A stretch of 47,638 nt of DNA from an uncultured Pseudomonadota bacterium (GTDB lineage: Bacteria; Pseudomonadota; Alphaproteobacteria; RF32; CAG-239). The DNA lies in contig CASFLC010000082.1 of NCBI GenBank assembly GCA_949295475.1, positions 1 to 47,638 of the forward strand, in the 5' to 3' direction. The notes under the pieces were generated by a model, which searched no databases, was not told where the DNA came from, and saw only the letters and a program-made list of their open reading frames with translations. How positions within the stretch are numbered: position 1 is the stretch's first letter; each line of letters begins with the position of its first letter. Shown here in pieces: positions 29,072 through 39,786 of the stretch. Made by a program: the position numbers and the translations under genes.

Positions 29072-30013
29072 TCAAACAAGTTCTTTTCGAAATTCTTTTT
29101 TTAACACTTTATTCAACAATTTGCTGGTATGGCCGCTGTCAGGAACAATCACGAGCCTGGAGTGCGGCAACCCTTTGTGAACCAGATACGCGCCGCGCGG
29201 CGGACAAACGAAATCGAGTCTGTTATGAACGATAATGGTCGGAATTCCGGAAATTTTATGCAAATTATCAAGAATTTCACCATCTTTCAGCATAAAATTT
29301 TGGGCCGCATAATTAATATAAACCTTCTGTGAAGCCAATTCTTCTTCACTTAAAGCAGCCAGCGTGTTCCACCGTGGCGACAAAGAACTGCGCACCCTCT
29401 CCCACCAGCCATAAGTGTTGGCGGCCGTAAGCTGCTGCGCCGTATCGTCCGAATTAATCAGATCGGCATAATAGCCGGCCAATCCGTTCCCGCGTTTAGC
29501 CACCCGCCTCATCTCCTCTAAAAATTCAGGATAGAACAACCCGGCGCCGTCATCTTCCCAGGACAATGCCGCGCCGTCAGCCAAAAAAATCTGAGATAAC
29601 AAAAGTTTGTCAACACGATTTGGATATTTCTCCGCATACAGCAAAGCCAGCGTTGCCCCCCATGAACCGCCGCGCAATATAATATTTTCATTTATTTTCA
29701 AATAATTAAGCAAACGGTTAATATCGTTTAGCAGTGCCTGTGTCGTGTTGTTTTTCATTTCGCCCAACGGCTGTGACCGCTTGCAGCCCCGCTGATCAAA
29801 CATAATAACCCGATAACGCCGCAAATCGGCAAAAGAGGCGTGTTTTGGCTTACAGCTGCCTCCGGGGCCGCCATGCAAAACCACAATCGGCTTTCCTTTC
29901 GGATTTCCGAATTCCATAAAAAACACCTTATGGCCCTCGTCTTCTGGCAAATAACCCTGATTAAAAGGCCTGGGTTCAAACAGTTTGCTCAACCACATAT
30001 TCCCGCTCCTCAA
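29072..30013 (-). CDS. pip: Proline iminopeptidase (alpha/beta hydrolase, S33)
   Basis: HGGPGG oxyanion segment, GGSWG nucleophile elbow, and a C-terminal SGH catalytic His region. Confidence 0.85.
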   Translation of the reverse strand: MRSGNMWLSKLFEPRPFNQGYLPEDEGHKVFFMEFGNPKGKPIVVLHGGPGGSCKPKHASFADLRRYRVIMFDQRGCKRSQPLGEMKNNTTQALLNDINRLLNYLKINENIILRGGSWGATLALLYAEKYPNRVDKLLLSQIFLADGAALSWEDDGAGLFYPEFLEEMRRVAKRGNGLAGYYADLINSDDTAQQLTAANTYGWWERVRSSLSPRWNTLAALSEEELASQKVYINYAAQNFMLKDGEILDNLHKISGIPTIIVHNRLDFVCPPRGAYLVHKGLPHSRLVIVPDSGHTSKLLNKVLKKEFRKELV

Positions 30014-30083
30014 ATTAAAGTTTGCAATTCTCCCGCTTTTATTTTATACATAAATCAGCTTCAGGCAAACAGACAGGAACAAT

Positions 30084-30746
30084 ATGTGTATAAATATCGG
30101 ATATGCTTCGGAAATTTATGAAATTGATCCGCGGGACATTGCCGTCCTGCCGGACTGTGCGCCGGAATTGTCCGCCCGCGTCAAACATCCCGAAGCCGTT
30201 ACCGTCCTTTTGGGAAACCGCGACCGAAACCGGCCTGATACGCTGGTTTGCGGCCGGGAGCTGGTTGAACGGGCACTAAGCGACGGAACGGCATACATTC
30301 CCGTTCGTTTCTGCTTTATCAGCAATATTCCGGCCTGGAACCTGATACCGCTTTTTATAAAAAAATTTCGCTACAAATATAAATATTTTAACACCAATAT
30401 TTATCACCTCAGCGCCAAAAGACTGCGGCAGCAGGGATTGGAACGCGGCGTCCGCACGGCTGAAAACGCCTACGCCATCACCAACAAACGGTGGGCCATT
30501 CCCGAAGAAGAACGCCGAAAAAAATATCAAAATCTGGTTAATTCCATGAAAAACGGTTTTGATGACAACTATCCTCTGTCAATCATGCTCTGCCGGCGTG
30601 CCGGCCTCAAAGACAGCTTGGATAACGGCCATCACCGCATGGGCATCTGCCTGGATTTAGGCATCGACCGCATTTGTGTAAACTTTATTGCCGCGGGCAA
30701 AGCCCCAAGCATTTTAACAAGCATTTACAAAATATTGAAGAAGTAA
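30084..30746 (+). CDS. Hypothetical protein with a ParB/sulfiredoxin-like domain (DNGHHR motif)
   Basis: 220-aa ORF. The C-terminal part YQNLVNSMKNGFDDNYPLSIML...LDNGHHRMGICLDLGIDRICV resembles the ParB/Srx fold. The N-terminal lobe looks like a degenerate copy. Confidence 0.5.
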   Translation: MCINIGYASEIYEIDPRDIAVLPDCAPELSARVKHPEAVTVLLGNRDRNRPDTLVCGRELVERALSDGTAYIPVRFCFISNIPAWNLIPLFIKKFRYKYKYFNTNIYHLSAKRLRQQGLERGVRTAENAYAITNKRWAIPEEERRKKYQNLVNSMKNGFDDNYPLSIMLCRRAGLKDSLDNGHHRMGICLDLGIDRICVNFIAAGKAPSILTSIYKILKK

Positions 30747-30747
30747 A

Positions 30748-31695
30748 TTAATCTTTTAAATCAATATAAGCCATCGGAGACTTTTCAGCCTTAACGGTAA
30801 TCCGCGGAAGCTGATAATCATCGTCGGACAAATAACAGCACGTCTCCCTGACGGCAACGCCGGATTTATAAAAACGCCGCACCAAACCGTCAACTCGAGG
30901 ACAATAACTGCCGTAAGCATAGCTGAAATGCTCCACCGCCTGCCCCAAAATACCTTCCAAAACCCGCTTGCTCTCGGCAAACTCCTTTTTCAGGTTTGAC
31001 TTCAACCGGATTTTATACAGCGGATAATGCGATTTGCCGTGAGATCCGATAGTGCACAGCGGCGACGTGTTCATCTCCCGGAGTTCCTCCGGAGAACAGA
31101 CATATTTCTTAAAATACGCGTCAAACGGCAGACTGTCGTCACGCAGATACTTTGACAGCAAATGTCTGCCGGACACCCAGGGCAAAAAGAGTTTAGTTCG
31201 TTTGTACCTTTTCCACAAATCGTTAAAACAAAGAGATTTTTCCGCCTCGTCCCGCGCGGGATACTTCTTGCCGCCGAAAGCCAGATTCTGATGATGATAA
31301 ATATAATCCATCGCCAGCTGGCCTCCGTCGATTTCCGGACGGCGACAGCGGTCAAAACCATACAAAATAAAATCCGAAGCGACATAAAAGACAAACGGAA
31401 CCTTATGTTTTTCAAAAACCGGCCAGGCATATTGATAAATATCCCGATAACCGTCGTCAATCGTAACCACGATATCTTTGGCAAAAGCTTTCCCGGCCTG
31501 TTTGTTGGACAGAAATTCATCAATGGAAACAAAGCGAAATCCGGCAGCCTTGGCTTCCAGAATACAACGCTCCAGATATTCGGGAGTAATCCGTGTTGAT
31601 TTGTCAAAACGCTGAAACTCAATTTCCGGACGATTTGGAGCCACCCGGTGCAGCATCCATAATTTTCCGCAGCAATTTTCGATTTGTTTTTCCAT
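30748..31695 (-). CDS. Polysaccharide deacetylase (NodB homology, CE4) family protein
   Basis: VVTIDDGYRDIY motif 1 and a GSHGKSH-type His motif; 315 aa. Confidence 0.8.
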   Translation of the reverse strand: MEKQIENCCGKLWMLHRVAPNRPEIEFQRFDKSTRITPEYLERCILEAKAAGFRFVSIDEFLSNKQAGKAFAKDIVVTIDDGYRDIYQYAWPVFEKHKVPFVFYVASDFILYGFDRCRRPEIDGGQLAMDYIYHHQNLAFGGKKYPARDEAEKSLCFNDLWKRYKRTKLFLPWVSGRHLLSKYLRDDSLPFDAYFKKYVCSPEELREMNTSPLCTIGSHGKSHYPLYKIRLKSNLKKEFAESKRVLEGILGQAVEHFSYAYGSYCPRVDGLVRRFYKSGVAVRETCCYLSDDDYQLPRITVKAEKSPMAYIDLKD

Positions 31696-31777
31696 TATTT
31701 GTCAACCTGTACTATACAAAGATAGAAACAAGTCTAACACTTTGGAAAGAAATGTAAATCAGAAACGCACCGGCGGT

Positions 31778-32662
31778 TCACAACTTGTTATGTATTTTCT
31801 GCGGCAGAATAACATGCTTGTAATAATAAGCGCAGGCGTCCGTAATCTGTATAATCCGCCGCACTTCCGTATCTTTGGGCTTCAAGATTTCATAAAAAGC
31901 AATAAATTCTGGTCGTTTTCTCAACTCAAAATACTTGTCGACGTCAACGCCCATGTTCTGATTGCCGATATTGTGCCTACTGTCGGCCGCCATAAACCAC
32001 GCCGGAAAATCAAGCAAATGATTCGGACCAACCAAATACTCAAAAGGCGCGGAAGAATACATGCTGATGTGCAGGCCGTGAGCCGGACGAAACGTCACTT
32101 CCGGCCCGGGCATTTTCAACCCTTTGCGCTGAATAATTTGGTAAAGCAGATCTTCGTCGTTGCATTTGCCGAGATTGATTCCCCGCAAAGACGGCAGCGG
32201 ATACATTTTGTCATAAGCGATAAAATGCAGACCGGTCAACCGCTTGCGCCCTTGTCTGACCACGTTGCTGAAATCGAGACGATGTTTTTCAATGTTGTCC
32301 AGATGTTGAGAAGCGACTTCTTCCGTAATCAGGATATCCGCATCGCCGATATAAACGTAATCCGCCTTCAGTTTCGGCTGAGTAACAAACCGCACGCTGT
32401 TGGGCACGATTTTTTGTTTGCCGTGCCAAGTCAGCCGTTCAAAAGCCGCCGGCCTGAAAAGCACCCTTCCCGGAAAATATTTATCATAAAAATCAAAAAC
32501 ATGCCGGTATTTGCGATGAAAGCGGCGATAATTTTCCACACCTATTTCCACTTTGCTGCCGGGATTCGTCATCAGCACAAACAACGGATAAATCATTCCG
32601 AAACCCCAGAACTTTGTGTTGACGCAGGTATAAAACAAAACGCTTTTTTGCTTGTCAGACAT
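31778..32662 (-). CDS. Unclassified putative glycan-modifying enzyme, paralog A (GDAD acidic motif)
   Basis: 294-aa ORF, paralogous along its length to 35306-36175. Its central 120 aa are almost identical to that gene. I do not recognise the family. Confidence 0.7.
   Translation of the reverse strand: MSDKQKSVLFYTCVNTKFWGFGMIYPLFVLMTNPGSKVEIGVENYRRFHRKYRHVFDFYDKYFPGRVLFRPAAFERLTWHGKQKIVPNSVRFVTQPKLKADYVYIGDADILITEEVASQHLDNIEKHRLDFSNVVRQGRKRLTGLHFIAYDKMYPLPSLRGINLGKCNDEDLLYQIIQRKGLKMPGPEVTFRPAHGLHISMYSSAPFEYLVGPNHLLDFPAWFMAADSRHNIGNQNMGVDVDKYFELRKRPEFIAFYEILKPKDTEVRRIIQITDACAYYYKHVILPQKIHNKL
32055..32414 (-). repeat. Left arm of the ~360-nt near-identical inverted repeat, inside paralog A
   Basis: The reverse complement matches 35553-35911, with uninterrupted identical runs of about 74, 47 and 64 nt as counted by eye. 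Confidence 0.8.
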
Positions 32663-33458
32663 TTCTATTCAGCCATTTTTTCAAATAAAATTTTACAACC
32701 AACGGAAACAGCTTAAAATTGCGGGCAATTGCATTCAGTGAAAAATGCGCCTGAAACAATTCGCCATACGCATCGTCCTTAAACGCCTCGCATTTCCTAT
32801 ACCTTTTTCCGTACTGATTCGGCGGCCGATGTCCTCTGATGCCCTTTTGAACCGCAACGACGGAAAAAACCGCCTGATCGTGGCGATGATCCACAAAATA
32901 AGGATAATTCGGTTTTCCCTGAGTATTGTCCATGTCCGTCAGGATTCGCTCATCCTCGCAAAACTTCAGCCATTCTTCAAGAAAACCGACGGCCTCCGGC
33001 GTTTTTTGCCACACCGACATCATTGCCGCAAAATCAAAAGACTTATATATCTCCGGTTTGTCGGCATTCATTAAAACCAAGGCATCTCTTTTGCACCAAC
33101 ATTCAATGGTTTGCGGCAAATTTCGAAACAGCAAAATCCCCTTCTCCCTGGCGCAGAGATCATACAAAACGTCAAAATTCTGCCGGGCCAGCATCTTGGA
33201 GTCGCTGTAAATCAGAAAATCGCCTTTTTTAAGTTTTTTTAGCTCTTCCAAAATAATATAAGGTTTCCACAGCCAGTAACCGGCACCGCGCTGTTGCGTC
33301 AGTATTTTCCGATTCGCTTTAAAAAACGGAGTCTTTCGGAGTTTGTCATCATTCCAGAAAATAACTTTGTCAACACTTCCGGTCGCCAGAGCCGATGTTG
33401 CCAGAATATTCATGGAAACCTCATACCCATGGTTCCCGAATGTCAGCAAATACCTCAT
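32655..33458 (-). CDS. Putative glycosyltransferase, family not recognised
   Basis: 267-aa ORF with RGAGYWLWKPYII and YSDS segments. Its stop overlaps the start of paralog A by 8 nt. Confidence 0.6.
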   Translation of the reverse strand: MRYLLTFGNHGYEVSMNILATSALATGSVDKVIFWNDDKLRKTPFFKANRKILTQQRGAGYWLWKPYIILEELKKLKKGDFLIYSDSKMLARQNFDVLYDLCAREKGILLFRNLPQTIECWCKRDALVLMNADKPEIYKSFDFAAMMSVWQKTPEAVGFLEEWLKFCEDERILTDMDNTQGKPNYPYFVDHRHDQAVFSVVAVQKGIRGHRPPNQYGKRYRKCEAFKDDAYGELFQAHFSLNAIARNFKLFPLVVKFYLKKWLNRNV

Positions 33459-33569
33459 TTATTCCTCTAAAAATAAGATTTAGCTCTCGGTGAGATACTA
33501 CCTTAAGATGTGAAATTTGACAACAAGTTTTTGGCCCTTGTGGACAAAGCGTAACGTAAATTTTATTTG

Positions 33570-34250
33570 CTAAAGAGACTGATTTCTGAAATAAGCGATG
33601 CCGTCGTCATCTTCCCAGCGAATGCCTTTTTTCAGGACCTTTGCCGGATTTCCCCCGATTGCCGTAAATTTTTCATCAAAAGCTTTGGTAACGACCGCTT
33701 TTTTTCCGACAATGGTTTCATCGGCCAGCCGGACACTTTTCAAAATGCTCACCCCCTGCCCCAGCCAGCAATGATTACCGATTTTGATATTTTTCGGAAA
33801 ATTGGTGATTTTTCCGCTTTCAAGGTCAAAAATCGGATGCCCGTCGGAATTATGGATTTCCACATCTTCGGAAAACAGGCATCGGTCGCCGATTTCTATT
33901 GACGTATGCGAATTTAAAACGCTGGCCTTCAGGTTACGCAACCCGCACCCCGAACCGCAGACAAAAGCGCTGTCAACGGCCGGCTCCGGGTGTTTCAAAA
34001 CGCCGATTCTCAAATTAACGTCCGTCAAAGATGAACCGGCGCCGATTTCCACTTTGCAACCTTCTCCGTGCATCTTCACCACAAACTTTTTACCGATTTT
34101 GACACCCTTGCCGAGCACAACTTGATTATTGTTGCCGCGGATTTTAATCCTGATTTTGCCGAAACCGATACGTCCGGGTAGCAAAATCTGATTGTTGCGT
34201 CCTTTAACCGAAATAAAAAACAACCTGTTCAACCAGTCGAAAAACATCAA
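33570..34250 (-). CDS. Left-handed beta-helix (hexapeptide-repeat) O-acetyltransferase
   Basis: Repeated [LIV]-G-x4 hexapeptides and a C-terminal IGNHCWLGQGVSIL...IGGNPAKV. The probable ATG at about 34247 has AAGGAG upstream. Confidence 0.85.
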   Translation of the reverse strand: MMFFDWLNRLFFISVKGRNNQILLPGRIGFGKIRIKIRGNNNQVVLGKGVKIGKKFVVKMHGEGCKVEIGAGSSLTDVNLRIGVLKHPEPAVDSAFVCGSGCGLRNLKASVLNSHTSIEIGDRCLFSEDVEIHNSDGHPIFDLESGKITNFPKNIKIGNHCWLGQGVSILKSVRLADETIVGKKAVVTKAFDEKFTAIGGNPAKVLKKGIRWEDDDGIAYFRNQSL

Positions 34251-34350
34251 TTTAACTCCTTTCCCGAACCAAATGTTATATCAGTCCTGACAGATAAACA
34301 ATCATATTTTTCAAGTGATTGACAAAGCAGTTAATAAACACAATTAAACA

Positions 34351-34379
34351 TTGATAAAGCATCTGCGGCCGTCTATATT
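34351..34379 (+). promoter_or_regulatory. Candidate sigma70 promoter of the rightward glycan operon
   Basis: TTGATA, a 17-nt spacer, then TATATT. The TTG used as the ORF-track start at 34351 is the -35 box. Confidence 0.4.
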
Positions 34380-34410
34380 CAAAATGTCATCACATACGGA
34401 GTTTTCAACA

Positions 34411-35304
34411 ATGCAGCCAAACAGCGGACAACGAAATTTTTATTACTATTTTATGCAGGGTTTAAGCCGGATAACGCCGTCCAGATATTGGCGCAAAGAA
34501 TTCCATTATCTGTCATATCTCGGCTCTTTTGCCAACCTGCTTCAAAACGTCTCAATCCGCCGCAATTACAAAAAAATAATCAAAGACTACCGCGCCCAAA
34601 AAGCCGGACGGCAAGCCTCTCTGGTCGTTTACTCCTGTATTACGGGCGGTTATGACCTGCCTATTAAACTAAAATACCTGAATCCCGAATATGATTACGT
34701 CATGTTTGTAGAAAATCCCGAAGACTTTAATCCGGAAGATTATCCTTGGGAATTCCGCAAGCTTCCTTACACTGCCGCAGACAACGTTCGCAACGCCCGC
34801 TATTCCAAAATTATGTATTATGAAGCCCTTCCGGGCTATAAGGAATATTTGTGGATTGACAGCAACATTGACGTTCTCAGCAGCCTGTTGTACGAAGATG
34901 TCGAAAAATTGCGCAAATCAGGCGCGGAATTTGCAATTTCACGACACCCTCACCGCGATTGCATTTACGAAGAAGCCGAAATTTGCATCAAAATGCAGAA
35001 AGACAAACCGGACATCATCAAAGAACAGTGCCGTTTTTTGAAAGAAGAAGGCTATCCCGAACATTTCGGCCTTTTTGAAAACAACGTTATCTATCGCAAA
35101 GACACGCCGAACAACCGCAAAGTCTCGCAAACCTGGTGGGAAATGCTCAATCGTTTCTCCCGCCGCGACCAGTTGAGTCTTATGTATGCCGTCTGGAAAA
35201 ACAAAACACCCAAACCGCTGCCCATGAACCGGTGCAGCTATCGCAACCTTATCGGCGATACGCTGGTTCGCAAACATTTCCAAAAACGTGTAAAGGCCTT
35301 CTAA
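34411..35304 (+). CDS. DUF616-family putative glycosyltransferase
   Basis: VVYSCITGGYD and RDQLSLMYAVWK match DUF616 hallmarks. The ATG at 34411 has GGAG about 9 nt upstream. The track start at 34351 and the ATG at 34384 fall in or next to the promoter. Confidence 0.75.
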   Translation: MQPNSGQRNFYYYFMQGLSRITPSRYWRKEFHYLSYLGSFANLLQNVSIRRNYKKIIKDYRAQKAGRQASLVVYSCITGGYDLPIKLKYLNPEYDYVMFVENPEDFNPEDYPWEFRKLPYTAADNVRNARYSKIMYYEALPGYKEYLWIDSNIDVLSSLLYEDVEKLRKSGAEFAISRHPHRDCIYEEAEICIKMQKDKPDIIKEQCRFLKEEGYPEHFGLFENNVIYRKDTPNNRKVSQTWWEMLNRFSRRDQLSLMYAVWKNKTPKPLPMNRCSYRNLIGDTLVRKHFQKRVKAF

Positions 35305-35305
35305 G

Positions 35306-36175
35306 ATGACTGCTTCACCCTCAATTCTCTTTTATACCTGCGTCAACGAAAAATTTTGGGCCTTCGGATTGTTGTACCCGATTTTTGTGTTAAACAGCAA
35401 TCCCGGCGCCAAGGTAGAAATAGGCGTGGAAAATCACTTGCGTTTCACGCACAAATTCAAGCACATCATTTCGTTTTATGAAAAGGAATATCCCGGCCGC
35501 GTCCGCTTTTCCGCGGTTTCGTTTACTCAAAGAAAATTGTTCGGCAGCCGGAAAATCGTGCCCAACAGCGTGCGGTTTGTTACTCAGCCGAAACTGAAGG
35601 CGGATTACGTTTATATCGGCGATGCCGATGTTCTGATTACGGAAGAGGTCGCGCCGCAGCATCTGGACAACATCAAAAAACATCGCCTCGATTTCAGCAA
35701 CGTGGTCAGACAAGGGCGCAAGCGGTTGACCGGCCTGCATTTTATTGCTTATGACAAAATGTATCCGCTGCCGTCTTTGCACGGCATCGATTTAAGCAAA
35801 TGCAACGACGAAGATCTGCTTTACCAAATTATTCAGCGCAAAGGGTTGAAAATGCCCGGACCGGAAGCCACGTTCCGCCCCATTCACGGTCTGCACATCA
35901 GCATGTATTCCTCAACACCCTTCGAAACAATGACGACCAAAGACAAAATTGTTGACTTTCCCTGCTGGTTTCCGTCTTTGCAAAGCAACCACAATATCAG
36001 CCGCGTCGACTGCGTCAAGGAAATCAACAAATACTATCAAATCCGCTATTCGGAACCGGTCAAAAAATTCTTTTCCGTTCTTAAACCCAAAAACACAGAA
36101 ATCCGCCGGATTATTCAGATTACGGATGCTTGCGCCTACTATTATCTCAATGTCGTTTCGCAGCCGGCCGGATAG
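35306..36175 (+). CDS. Unclassified putative glycan-modifying enzyme, paralog B
   Basis: 289-aa ORF, paralogous to 31778-32662. It starts 2 nt after the DUF616 stop. Confidence 0.7.
   Translation: MTASPSILFYTCVNEKFWAFGLLYPIFVLNSNPGAKVEIGVENHLRFTHKFKHIISFYEKEYPGRVRFSAVSFTQRKLFGSRKIVPNSVRFVTQPKLKADYVYIGDADVLITEEVAPQHLDNIKKHRLDFSNVVRQGRKRLTGLHFIAYDKMYPLPSLHGIDLSKCNDEDLLYQIIQRKGLKMPGPEATFRPIHGLHISMYSSTPFETMTTKDKIVDFPCWFPSLQSNHNISRVDCVKEINKYYQIRYSEPVKKFFSVLKPKNTEIRRIIQITDACAYYYLNVVSQPAG
35553..35911 (+). repeat. Right arm of the ~360-nt inverted repeat, inside paralog B
   Basis: See the left arm. The gene ends outside the arm have clearly diverged at the DNA level. Confidence 0.8.
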
Positions 36176-36261
36176 TTTTTAACCGACGGATTATTAACGT
36201 TTTACTTTTTGTCAATCTATGCTAAACTGATTTCAACAATCACAAGCCATAAGAGTGACAA

Positions 36262-37281
36262 ATGAGCAAAACACAACTTAAAAGTCATAAGAAGACTTCT
36301 TCTCATACCGCCCAAAAACGGCAAACAGCCAGAGCCAAAGCCCCGACAAACAATTTATTCTCCAAATTTGACCTGACCATTGCCGTCCTTTCCTGGCGCC
36401 AGCCCAAAACCCTGCGCAATACACTGAACAGCTACCGCCGCAACGGTTTGCTGGATATGGTTCGGCAAAAGCTGATTTTCTTTAATCAGGTAACCTCCGA
36501 AGACTTGAAAATCGCGGAAGAATACGGTTTTGAGGTTATTGCGAACAAAAACAACATCGGTATTGGACTGCCCTACCAACAGCTTCTTCAACGTGCGACG
36601 TCAAAATACTTCATGTTTCTGGAAAACGATTTTATGCTGATTGAAGACGCTCAAACGACGGCTCAGCGCTTGCAGCAGGCGGTCGACCTTTTGGAAAACG
36701 GCGTGGATGCCGTCCGTTTCCGCCATCGTTATCATTACGGCGATCCCAGCAATTATCTTCGCAATGTCTGGAGCGGCAAACTGGATAAAAACATTCCTAC
36801 CCTGGAATGGATTTCTCTCTACGCGGATCCGTCGCTTTTAACGGATGTTATCCAAAAACAAGAACTCCCCGGACAAGACGTGTTTATCACCACCTCTCAA
36901 TACGGACATTATACCAACAACCCCTGCATGTATAAAAGAGAATTCATCTCAAAACTTATCCTGCCGGTCAAATTCAACAATCATGACGTTATTGAAAACA
37001 ATATCTGTGAGCTTTGGGACAAGGGAAATTTTTGCGTTGCCGCCGGAACCGGCCTCTTTAAGCATAACCCGCTGGAATTCAGCGGTTCCGCCTTCTCAGA
37101 AAACAAACGTATCAAAACACCGATAAAAAACTGGACGCATTACATTATCCGCCTCGGCATGCGGCGTAACGTCTTCAACTGCTTTCTGCTGCAGTTTTTG
37201 CCGATGATTTTCAAAATCAACCTCAACATCGCCGACAAATTTATGATTAACTTCTCTTTGGGACGTTACGAAAGCGTTTAA
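36262..37281 (+). CDS. GT-A-fold (GT2-like) putative glycosyltransferase
   Basis: LTIAVLSWRQPKTL strand-1 pattern and an acidic ENDF motif at the DxD position; 339 aa. Confidence 0.6.
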   Translation: MSKTQLKSHKKTSSHTAQKRQTARAKAPTNNLFSKFDLTIAVLSWRQPKTLRNTLNSYRRNGLLDMVRQKLIFFNQVTSEDLKIAEEYGFEVIANKNNIGIGLPYQQLLQRATSKYFMFLENDFMLIEDAQTTAQRLQQAVDLLENGVDAVRFRHRYHYGDPSNYLRNVWSGKLDKNIPTLEWISLYADPSLLTDVIQKQELPGQDVFITTSQYGHYTNNPCMYKREFISKLILPVKFNNHDVIENNICELWDKGNFCVAAGTGLFKHNPLEFSGSAFSENKRIKTPIKNWTHYIIRLGMRRNVFNCFLLQFLPMIFKINLNIADKFMINFSLGRYESV

Positions 37282-37296
37282 GCAAAAAGGAATGCC

Positions 37297-38265
37297 ATGT
37301 TTACATTATATTCAAAAAAGAAAAACGATGATGAAAGAGAAATAACCGTTCTGGGCTTCAAATTCAAATATAAAACCGATAAATATCAAAAACGAAAACC
37401 GCTGGAATACTATAAAAACCAGCCGCTTGAAGAGAAAATCAAAAAAATTTCCGCCCAATTTAAGAAAAAAGTCGGTTATCGCCTGAATTTGGAAAATCCT
37501 CAATCATTCAACGAGAAAATTCAGTGGCTCAAACTGTATTACCACAACCCGCTCATGACCATAGCAGCCGACAAATACCAAGCCAAGGACTATGTTGCTC
37601 AAAAAATCGGAAAAGAATATATTATTCCGACCTTGTTTGCCTGGGACAACGTTGACGACATAGATTTTGACAAACTCCCGCAACAATTTGTGCTGAAGCT
37701 AAACAGCGGCTGCGGCAAAAACATCATCTGCACCGATAAAAACAGTTTGGATATTGAAAGAACCAAAGAAAAGTTGAACAATTGGCTCAAGGCGGCAAAT
37801 CATTATTGCTACTCTTACGAATGGGCCTATGCGGACATCAAGCCCAAAATCATTTGCGAAAAATACATAGATTCCCTCACCGGAGATTTACTTGATTACA
37901 AATTTTTCTGCTACAGCGGACGCGTTGAAAATATGTACGTCGCCAGCAACCGCAGCAGGCATCTCAATATGAATTTTTATGACCGCTATTTCAATGAACT
38001 ACCGTTTATTCGCAAATGCCCCAAAAATCCCAAGCATTTTGTAAAACCAGAAAAATACGAAAAGATGATTGAATTGGCAGAAACGTTGGCGCAGGATTTT
38101 CCTTTTGTCCGGGTTGATTTCTACAATGTAGGACAACAAATTTATTTTGGTGAGTTAACATTTTATCCCTCAAATGGCATGGATCCATTTACGCCTCGAG
38201 AGTATGACTACACCTTCGGCAAACTGATAAAGCTGCCGGAACCGATGAATCCCGAAAAGGCTTAA
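37297..38265 (+). CDS. TupA-like ATP-grasp amidoligase
   Basis: NPQSFNEKIQWLKLYY, FVLKLNSGCG, DYKFFCYSG and VRVDFY...YFGELTFYP match the TupA-like ATP-grasp family pattern. Confidence 0.8.
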   Translation: MFTLYSKKKNDDEREITVLGFKFKYKTDKYQKRKPLEYYKNQPLEEKIKKISAQFKKKVGYRLNLENPQSFNEKIQWLKLYYHNPLMTIAADKYQAKDYVAQKIGKEYIIPTLFAWDNVDDIDFDKLPQQFVLKLNSGCGKNIICTDKNSLDIERTKEKLNNWLKAANHYCYSYEWAYADIKPKIICEKYIDSLTGDLLDYKFFCYSGRVENMYVASNRSRHLNMNFYDRYFNELPFIRKCPKNPKHFVKPEKYEKMIELAETLAQDFPFVRVDFYNVGQQIYFGELTFYPSNGMDPFTPREYDYTFGKLIKLPEPMNPEKA

Positions 38266-39167
38266 CGCTTCAAAGAGGCCTTAAACTTTCCCATAAATAT
38301 CTTAACCTTATCAAAAAAATTTAATCTTAACTTTTCAGATTCCATGATAAGGTTTTGATATTTATCTCTATTTTCCGTGATGTATTTGGGAAAATCAGCA
38401 TCAATAGCAACCGCTCTGAAATGTTTTCCGCGTCCGAAAAGATCATCGCCGTTTTTGACTCTGGCTTCTATTTTTGCCAAATCAGTAAACTCGTCTTTAT
38501 GAAATTCGGTATGTGAAATAGATAAAATCTTCTGCTGAATTGCTTTGGCTCCGCCCAAATAACTGAAATGCCAGCCACCGTTATGCACCCAAGGCCCTTT
38601 TTTGTAATAACGGATTTTGATCGGGGTCGTCGCCGTACAATATTCTGCCGGAAGCTTGCTGTTCATTTTAACCTTAACCCCGTCAAGTCCATGTGCAAAA
38701 TCTTTGAATTTCAACATTCTGGTTCCCTTAAACCAAACAGGTTCCTCAACACACAGATAGTTAAGGTAATAATAATAAAAGTTATTTTGAAAACACTTGA
38801 TACCCGGCTTGTCTTTATATTTCAAAATTTTCTCCGGCCGGGGAATCTCGTCCAAATCCGAAATCATAATCACATCGTCCGGCTGAGCCTCTGACAATCC
38901 TTTGGCTATATAGTTTTTTTGAATAAACTCAATAATCCACGGATTATCAATGGCTGAAAAATCTTCATCGCAGACCACATGAACAATTTTATCGGCAAAC
39001 GGAGCAAAACGTTCTTTGTTTTCTTCAAAATACAAAGGCTTGGATTGTCCTGTAAAAGTAGAAGTCGCCTCAACCAGCACAAACTTGTCAACAACCGGAT
39101 TTAAGACGTTAAGTCTGATTTCCAACAAATCCAGTTCGTTAAAAAAAGGAAAACAATCATATATCAT
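38262..39167 (-). CDS. Glycosyltransferase family 17-like protein
   Basis: MIYDCFPFFNELDLLEIRLNVL...VLVEA is the GT17 N-terminal signature. The internal ATG at 39167 is preferred; the track start is 39224. Confidence 0.8.
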   Translation of the reverse strand: MIYDCFPFFNELDLLEIRLNVLNPVVDKFVLVEATSTFTGQSKPLYFEENKERFAPFADKIVHVVCDEDFSAIDNPWIIEFIQKNYIAKGLSEAQPDDVIMISDLDEIPRPEKILKYKDKPGIKCFQNNFYYYYLNYLCVEEPVWFKGTRMLKFKDFAHGLDGVKVKMNSKLPAEYCTATTPIKIRYYKKGPWVHNGGWHFSYLGGAKAIQQKILSISHTEFHKDEFTDLAKIEARVKNGDDLFGRGKHFRAVAIDADFPKYITENRDKYQNLIMESEKLRLNFFDKVKIFMGKFKASLKR

Positions 39168-39252
39168 TTTCAGCCTCTCCCAAAAAATATGCCTAAAGCA
39201 TACCGCAGGCCTCAAAAATGACAACCGCTATCCGCAATCTATACCAAGATTT

Positions 39253-39786
39253 TTATTTATCTGAACGAGGATGACAGCCGCAATAATCCTGAGCATAGAG
39301 CTGCAAATCTTTGATTAAAGCCTGACGCCGTTCCTGCATTCCGCCTTTACGCCCCTCCACAAGCTCATAAGGAACACCGGTTTCCAAAGACGCCTGCTCG
39401 GCCGCAGCATTAACCTGCTCCAGATTTTTATAACGGGAAACGCCCAAAACCGAAGCCACGGCATCAAACCCCTGCTCTTTTGCATACTCCATGGCTCTCT
39501 TGAGTCGCATACAAAAGCAAACCGAACAGCGTTTTCCCCGCTCCGGCTCGTTTTCCAGTCCTTTTGTCAGGCTTTGCCAGCGTTCATTGTCATATTCCAG
39601 TTCAACAAAAGGAACGTTATATAAGCGGCAAACCTTCAAATTCTCGTCTCGCCGCTTTTCGTACTCCGCCTCCGGCCGGATATTCGGGTTATAAAACAAA
39701 ACCGCAAAATCCGCCTTTTCCTCGGCAAGCTTTTCAATTACCGCGACGGAACACGGCGCGCAGCAGGACAATAAAAGCAGTTTCAT
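39253..39786 (-). CDS. queH: Epoxyqueuosine reductase QueH (DUF208)
   Basis: LLLSCCAPCS, FYNPNI.P..EY, RC..C and a C-terminal YCGC. Confidence 0.85.
   Translation of the reverse strand: MKLLLLSCCAPCSVAVIEKLAEEKADFAVLFYNPNIRPEAEYEKRRDENLKVCRLYNVPFVELEYDNERWQSLTKGLENEPERGKRCSVCFCMRLKRAMEYAKEQGFDAVASVLGVSRYKNLEQVNAAAEQASLETGVPYELVEGRKGGMQERRQALIKDLQLYAQDYCGCHPRSDK

Follow-up and report, generated by a model that had tools for sequence, protein, structure and literature searches.

Inverted paralogs that evolve in concert, with an occasional inversion between them, are textbook material for tufA and tufB. In Salmonella enterica these two genes undergo concerted evolution by recA-dependent gene conversion, and up to 50% of recombination events are inversions (PMC6735719, PMC5485169). 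A tuf inversion is costly, given that it rewires operons (PMC6735719, PMC5485169). The subject here is a related arrangement: two outward-pointing paralogous genes, A and B, that share an inverted repeat in a contig of 47,638 nucleotides (nt) from an uncultured gut alphaproteobacterium (CASFLC010000082.1; this whole stretch is called the window). An earlier note on this DNA took the repeat for either a RecA-type switch or a mark of ongoing gene conversion, and called either explanation unusual. With the tuf genes in mind, that was overstated.

As in tufA and tufB, the paralogs lie inverted on one chromosome, exchange appears to be non-reciprocal and to occur in contiguous tracts, and it may resolve as an inversion (PMC5485169, PMC6735719). 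The tuf genes are near-identical from end to end (1185 nt) and are separated by 761 kb, whereas here homogenisation is limited to the central 384 nt and the distance between the copies is 3.1 kb. Unlike the redundant tuf copies, the products of A and B are predicted to be distinct enzymes, and inversion would yield chimeric proteins.

The pneumococcal hsdS genes (Spn556II / SpnD39III cod locus) also carry inverted repeats inside paralog coding regions, namely IR2 of 298 bp and IR3 of 85 bp. Inversion there swaps 3' coding modules, which leads to hybrid alleles, and at the long repeats it still took place in psrA and recA mutants (PMC4948785). For hsdS, both orientations were demonstrated by polymerase chain reaction and sequencing within clones, the locus encodes a dedicated tyrosine recombinase, PsrA, and there is essentially no difference between the repeats. 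At the present locus, by contrast, no recombinase lies nearby, identity between the arms of the repeat is 82-91%, and two short metagenome contigs are all that shows the alternative orientation.

Inversion at the sap locus of Campylobacter fetus is reportedly recA-dependent, in work attributed to Dworkin and Blaser in 1996-97 and to Tu and colleagues in 2003. The sap locus likewise has a promoter-bearing segment between oppositely oriented homologous genes, with the shared region as recombination arm. The homology there is a conserved, near-identical 5' end, with whole variable bodies exchanged often, whereas here it is mid-gene and imperfect. Chimeric sapAB genes have been described, which means that recombination between sap types occurs (PMC4943207).

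Site-specific invertons, such as Hin, Fim and the promoters of Bacteroides capsular polysaccharide loci, or those in the PhaVa survey, also have inverted repeats that flank DNA for surface structures (bioRxiv 10.1101/2023.03.11.532203). Their inversion alters expression or recodes a protein (bioRxiv 10.1101/2023.03.11.532203). They use repeats of about 10-30 bp and a dedicated invertase, while this locus has 384 nt of coding homology, no invertase nearby, and crossovers that vary in position.

Identity between paralogs A and B

Paralog A (31778-32662, minus strand) encodes 294 amino acids (aa) and paralog B (35306-36175, plus strand) 289; both lie where the earlier note had placed them, and both point outward. 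An inverted-repeat search finds repeat I1 within these genes. It is 384 nt long and 90% complementary, with arms 3118 nt apart. The left arm (32040-32423, minus strand) takes up about codons 81-208 of A and codes for the predicted DxD motif and HGLH catalytic core. The right arm (35542-35925, plus strand) takes up about codons 80-207 of B, and is the putative recipient of most conversion tracts. The parts at 32055-32414 and 35553-35911 had been called near-identical in inverted orientation; I1 does cover both, and 90% identical is the fitter wording. Exact runs within the arms are 74, 64, 47, 34 and 20 nt long. The first three of these had been estimated by eye, and their lengths agree exactly.

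In a codon alignment, nucleotide identity of A and B is 0.61 over codons 1-80, 0.91 over codons 81-199 and 0.54 in the C-terminal part. Mismatches number 33 in 357 positions in the centre versus 218 in 510 in the flanks (Fisher p = 3e-29). The proportion of synonymous differences (pS) is 0.66 and 0.76 in the two flanks, where it is saturated, and 0.24 in the centre, which corresponds to a synonymous divergence (dS) of 0.29. Across the genomes compared, flank pS is 0.66-0.79; central A-B dS is higher in sister strains (0.45-0.70) than in the window (0.29). Since the contrast persists at synonymous sites, amino-acid constraint alone does not produce the central similarity. The outer thirds have indeed diverged, at 54-61% identity with saturated synonymous sites. 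Uniform identity along the paralogs, the mark of a plain old duplication, had been named beforehand as speaking against any exchange; the profile proved to be non-uniform.

There is a second and weaker inverted repeat, I2, at 31821-31882 (minus strand) and 36083-36144, with 62 nt at 81%. The conserved C-terminal RRIIQITDACAYYY block, for which many synonymous differences had been noted, is encoded there. Third-position identity in the C-terminal segment is about 0.45, and the level of similarity in I2 fits protein-level constraint only.

For comparison there are about 25 related contigs from metagenome-assembled genomes (MAGs) of uncultured gut Alphaproteobacteria. These include a sister clade with many contigs, in which locus DNA is about 89% identical to the window. 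In the flanks of the two genes the ordinary orthology signal is found: paralogs are 0.54-0.61 identical, orthologs 0.87-0.92. This changes in the centre, where A and B of the window are 0.908 identical, which is more than either shares with its counterpart in contig L001 (0.886 for A, 0.864 for B). The central A-B dS of 0.29 is likewise lower than that of orthologs, which is 0.43-0.58. With the A and B copies of the window and L001 as four taxa, informative sites that group by orthology and those that group by genome stand at 14:10 in the centre (n=24) and at 155:1 in the flanks (n=156), with p = 2.6e-9.

Tracts can also be seen between very close strains. Between L001 and L007, identity of the B gene is 100% in either flank. 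These two B genes have 20 differences, all of which lie within 46 nt (alignment nt 480-525), and at 19 of these 20 sites B of L007 has the allele of the A gene from its own genome. A crude bound on such clustering arising by chance is about 5e-22. Both B haplotypes recur in independent assemblies, in 6 contigs for protein P0036 and in 7 for P0043. In the window, B carries the alleles of the window's A at alignment nt 400-424 and 497-525, and has kept B-native sequence at 479-495. The tract at 400-424 puts QGRKRL in place of the B-native PNKNRL. The B-native patches are found in sister-clade B genes as well. A scan along the locus tells the same story: strains that are 99-100% identical fall to 0.94-0.96 exactly at the B arm.

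Where an A-type and a B-type gene do not reside in the same genome (L008 vs L079, and cross comparisons), central identity is 0.67-0.72 and third-position identity 0.52-0.68. In the sister clade, identity of the arms has drifted to 0.82-0.88 and the longest exact runs are only 35-62 nt. Such drifted arms fit sporadic conversion, not a maintained recombination site.

Recurrent gene conversion between the central parts of A and B would explain these data, and is well supported by the tracts, the discordance confined to the centre, the dS values, and the much lower central identity of A-type and B-type genes that do not share a genome. This is the part of the earlier proposal that has stood; the other part, an inversion switch, is unproven. 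Conversion of this sort is a known process. As far as sequence comparison goes, the tracts record several conversion events, independent of one another and later than the split of the strains. The explanation as a whole, including the mechanism below, is considered fairly probable.

Two other explanations need to be weighed against it. One is a single old event, in which part of a gene was duplicated or a domain was replaced in the common ancestor; the copies would then have diverged in the ordinary way, with no ongoing exchange. The left boundary of similarity (around alignment nt 250) is roughly common to both clades, and central identity is at least 82% in both, which could be ancestral. 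A single event is nevertheless very unlikely to be the answer, given that central A-B identity is 0.82 in some strains and 0.88 in others that are otherwise 99-100% identical, that the 20 clustered differences match the co-resident paralog in haplotypes known from 6 and 7 independent contigs, and that 10 informative sites group window and L001 by genome. The other is that the repeat, or its high identity, was made by the assembler through collapse or consensus mixing of the copies. The exact protein of the window's B is found on one contig only, the window itself. Yet the two-gene layout is present in seven spanning contigs from several samples and assemblers (the window, L001, L002, L007, L061, L062 and L065), and window positions 30995-35402 (4.4 kb, including the A copy) are matched at 99.93% in an independent sample, so the repeat is real and not an assembly collapse. 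The window's B also retains those B-native patches that sister-clade B genes share. Collapse or chimera, which had been listed as a possible undoing of the repeat, is contradicted by all this, and its probability is close to negligible.

The mechanism we propose is as follows. I1 would be the footprint of recurrent intrachromosomal conversion between the catalytic-core thirds of anciently diverged, head-to-head paralogs. A break or gap in one copy would be repaired by RecA-type homologous recombination, with the other copy as template. Only the central region, kept similar by protein constraint, would still pair. Heteroduplex tracts would begin and end inside this centre, and could not extend to the N- and C-terminal thirds, which have diverged. 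By renewing long identical runs, each conversion would make a further one more likely. Occasional resolution as a crossover would invert the 3.1-kb segment between the arms, with in-frame A-5'/B-3' and B-5'/A-3' hybrid enzymes as a result, and would swap the deacetylase gene on one side with the GT2-like and ATP-grasp genes on the other between two divergent transcription units. Such inversions would be a rare by-product, present at low frequency or counter-selected, and not a programmed phase-variation switch.

If this is right, the locus is a natural example of segment-restricted concerted evolution, in which conversion is limited to the catalytic core of two glycosyltransferase paralogs that are saturated outside it, and in which tracts can be resolved between strains 99-100% identical elsewhere. 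Inverted co-residence would then suffice to homogenise the core of an enzyme while its specificity-bearing ends remain distinct. There is also a practical side: since apparent divergence has a local hot spot in the arm, the arm matters for glycosyltransferase phylogenies and for MAG-based strain typing.

Hybrid contigs and a possible inversion

The segment between the arms (32424-35541, 3118 nt) would invert on a crossover between them. It contains both 5' gene parts, a 267-aa gene, a hexapeptide acetyltransferase gene, a divergent intergenic region and a TOD1/MUCI70 gene. This content, and that of the flanks, is as the earlier note had described it; its 'DUF616' gene is the PF04765 TOD1/MUCI70 one. 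A and B are probably transcribed from inside the segment, given that both are tightly coupled to the genes before them: the beginning of A and the end of the 267-aa gene share 8 nt, and the start of B is 2 nt past the stop of the TOD1/MUCI70 gene. The divergent AT-rich intergenic region (34251-34350) is the putative site of two outward-reading promoters.

Comparing the orientation of the locus among relatives had been suggested as a check on inversion. Gene order and orientation are the same in 7/7 spanning contigs, all in the reference orientation, and each canonical junction is spanned by about 12 contigs.

Some data weigh against the account given above, in which inversion is a rare by-product of conversion. 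One hybrid protein cluster has two members, P0002 and P0035, with an A-type N-terminus and a B-type C-terminus, both full-length and in frame. Their contigs, L003 (1604 nt, ERZ28613950) and L060 (2113 nt, ERZ16268218), come from different studies. In both, the order is 267-aa gene, A-5'/B-3' hybrid, 339-aa gene, which is one of the two junctions that inversion predicts. If L003 and L060 are real and common, inversion exceeds a rare by-product. The direction of conversion is a further point: net transfer appears to run mostly from A to B, and this direction rests on few outgroups. Finally, a scan of 30000-39500 for consensus promoters and terminators gives counts that are not above shuffled expectation, and a terminator scan of the gaps between A and the deacetylase gene and between B and the 339-aa gene found none. 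Given that the promoter scan does no better than chance, the placement of promoters inside the segment is something we infer, and the same goes for operon structure.

The hybrids look like clean recombinants of known haplotypes. Over its 2113 nt, L060 can be put together from the L062 haplotype by recombination without a single mismatch, and it crosses over in an identical tract of 32 nt (alignment nt 259-290). The contig L003 is an L007-type recombinant, with 1 mismatch in the 705 nt of the A side and 0 in the 853 nt of the B side, and it crosses over in a 46-nt identical tract (alignment nt 512-557). That the crossover points differ argues against site-specific recombination; it fits homologous recombination, or assembler misjoins. 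Among the canonical contigs listed, none is from ERZ28613950 or ERZ16268218. BioSample SAMEA6814568, the number adjacent to L003's SAMEA6814567, has a canonical B junction, with the 3' part of B and the 339-aa gene 100% identical to the B side of L003.

Other readings of the hybrids were tried and rejected. They are not long conversion tracts, since the downstream gene has also switched to the 339-aa gene. Nor do they have the layout of the single-copy relative L008, in which an A-type gene stands between the 267-aa and 339-aa genes, since their 3' parts are of the B type and match sister-strain haplotypes exactly or almost exactly.

The reciprocal hybrid, B-5'/A-3', is not present among 30 family clusters and members from a collection of about 15 billion proteins. 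Protein P0014 was a candidate for it and was rejected, as in its contig B is joined to unrelated DNA. That contig, L080 (1-956, ERZ16268269, from the assembly series of L060), consists of the 3' end of TOD1, the first ~533 nt of B and 181 nt of unrelated sequence. The join is inside the tract, identical in A and B, where L003 crosses over. L080 looks like an assembly chimera, and a break in such a shared tract means that misassembly at tracts of A/B identity is demonstrably possible. The tail of L080 has a 63-codon open frame on its opposite strand.

How far, then, might the segment be a real, recurrent and reversible inverton, which flips by homologous recombination without a dedicated recombinase and gives alternative surface glycans? 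In such a case a promoter-bearing segment would turn around, the C-terminal, probably acceptor-side modules of the glycosyltransferases would be swapped, and the downstream genes exchanged. The exact or near-exact recombinants L003 and L060 with their predicted junction speak for this, as do the intact reading frames of P0002 and P0035, the location of both 5' gene parts (and, by extension, of the promoters) inside the segment, and a C-terminal part that behaves as a separate variable module, in that many family members match positions ~7-205 only. There is also the pneumococcal precedent, where intragenic repeats of 298 bp and 85 bp invert without PsrA or RecA (PMC4948785). Against this, the contigs show just one of the two junctions to be expected, with no B-5'/A-3' hybrid in the family clusters. 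The hybrid contigs are short (1.6 and 2.1 kb), and 0/7 spanning contigs have the inverted orientation. The misjoin in L080 sits in the same tract as the L003 crossover, and identical tracts of 32-46 nt are shorter than the larger k-mers of de Bruijn assemblers, which would make low-coverage chimeras plausible. Arms that are 10-18% diverged are moreover poor substrates for RecA under active mismatch repair (PMC5485169). All told, that the hybrid contigs reflect real inversions is doubtful, and a recurrent homologous inverton is unlikely. A reversible switch that is put to functional use is likewise unlikely.

A serine or tyrosine invertase encoded elsewhere might instead act on a core site in the arms. 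Invertases are able to work in trans, and there are known examples of intragenic invertons (bioRxiv 10.1101/2023.03.11.532203). One fixed core would then be expected, whereas the two crossovers fall at different places (alignment nt 259-290 versus 512-557). The repeats are 384 nt of coding homology and not short specific sites. In a search confined to the locus, no recombinase gene was found within about 12 kb, either in a Pfam scan of the neighbouring open reading frames (ORFs) or in the gene tables of orthologous loci, and the earlier remark that none lies nearby is true of the ORFs in that range. Site-specific inversion is highly improbable here. Gene conversion, with inversion as at most an occasional outcome, is the preferred reading.

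The consequences of inversion would still be considerable. If it is true, this would be surface-glycan variation by domain swapping and without a recombinase, to be added to the known promoter invertons of gut bacteria. One crossover would swap C-terminal modules around a shared catalytic core, and exchange the deacetylase versus the GT2 and ATP-grasp genes between operons, and gene conversion would keep the recombination arms alive. That the hybrid contigs are real, and that this uncultured gut alphaproteobacterium has a reversible intragenic inverton serving as a domain-shuffling glycan switch, is distinctly unlikely.

The paralogs as predicted glycosyltransferases

A and B are 68% identical in amino acids overall. 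Pfam scans (also at E <= 5) and NCBIfam scans, which among family members covered A and B, assign no family to them, and this includes the GT8 model PF01501. A profile search of PDB with the paralog family likewise finds no sequence relative.

Structure prediction gives more. An AlphaFold2 model of A, built with 26 homologs, has a predicted local distance difference test score (pLDDT) of 90.8 and a predicted template modelling score (pTM) of 0.90. Foldseek finds 31 matches in PDB with E <= 1e-3, of which the best are the GT8-type structure 3tzt, glycogenin, LgtC and GlyE, and the rest other GT-A glycosyltransferases. The top matches have a probability of about 1.0, but template modelling scores (TM-scores) of just 0.32-0.42 and sequence identity of 9-16%. 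Like the retaining enzymes of GT8 (glycogenin, LgtC, GlyE), the paralogs have a predicted GT-A fold and a DxD motif; unlike them, they combine these low scores with no match to the GT8 model. Both A and B are therefore predicted to be GT-A-fold, GT8-like glycosyltransferases, A being the A-type and B the B-type member of one unannotated family. Given that the sequence searches came back empty and that structure prediction and Foldseek were needed, the assignment is at the level of the fold.

Across 26 diverse members there is no variation at residues D107 and D109 (in YIGDADI, the DxD motif), H146 or H198. The four positions all fall within the repeat arm, which suggests that the arm encodes the catalytic, donor-binding core. 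The C-terminal ~90 residues appear to behave as a variable module, since many family members match the profile only at positions ~7-205. Some members are fused into proteins of 500-1250 aa.

An exhaustive profile search yields 1067 clusters at 50% identity with E <= 1e-3, of which 329 have E <= 1e-30. On the strength of the fold prediction, the paralogs may define a GT-A family of about 1000 clusters that is without a curated model. A family of ~1067 clusters of this sort appears to be undescribed.

Two antisense ORFs shadow the paralogs, at 31742-32716 (plus strand, 324 aa) for A and at 35390-35782 (minus strand, 130 aa) for B. They mirror each other owing to the repeat, and most likely are not genes.

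Neighbouring genes and related loci

Directly upstream of A, and overlapping it, is the 267-aa gene (32655-33458, minus strand), which has no Pfam or NCBIfam assignment. Next comes a gene for a hexapeptide (left-handed beta-helix) O-acetyltransferase (33570-34250, minus strand), with matches to PF00132 and to WbbJ/WcaF-like NCBIfam models. On the other side of the divergent region lies the TOD1/MUCI70 glycosyltransferase-like gene (34351-35304, plus strand; PF04765), which leads into B. Downstream of A is a polysaccharide deacetylase gene (30748-31695, minus strand; PF01522). Downstream of B are the 339-aa GT2-like gene (36262-37281, plus strand; a weak match to PF00535) and a TupA-like ATP-grasp gene (37297-38265, plus strand; PF14305). 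Beyond the deacetylase gene is a 220-aa gene (30084-30746) without Pfam or NCBIfam assignment; synteny of this gene and of the 267-aa gene is kept across the species group.

Two more distant relatives have a single copy each. In L008 the 267-aa gene is followed by an A-type gene, the 339-aa gene and the deacetylase gene, all in one direction. In L079 the TOD1 gene and then the 339-aa gene read one way, and a B-type gene and then the deacetylase gene the other. The pair of TOD1/MUCI70 followed by a B-type gene is kept in distant lineages, which include Gastranaerophilaceae and other Alphaproteobacteria MAGs (L010, L012-L016, L019, L030, L032-L035). This suggests that TOD1/MUCI70 and the B-type enzyme form a functional two-enzyme module. 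From the single-copy relatives and the widespread pair it would follow that A-type and B-type are old lineages, which are co-resident head-to-head only in this species group.

L008 (5651-12520) and L079 (7042-14646) have differing cassettes between a conserved GT17 gene and the deacetylase and 220-aa genes. Judged by these cassettes, the region from GT17 to deacetylase is a variable glycan-gene island.

The 267-aa gene has a patch of its own. Over about 600 nt in its 5' part (L061 5063-5661; window ~32900-33500), L062, L064 and L060 have 86-96% identity to other haplotypes, and the same strains are 99-100% identical elsewhere, which makes this a second local recombination patch. Several contigs start just upstream of the 267-aa gene. 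In L064 (1252-1930), a frameshift or a sequencing error breaks the hexapeptide acetyltransferase gene into two ORFs, one of 190 aa and one of 50 aa.

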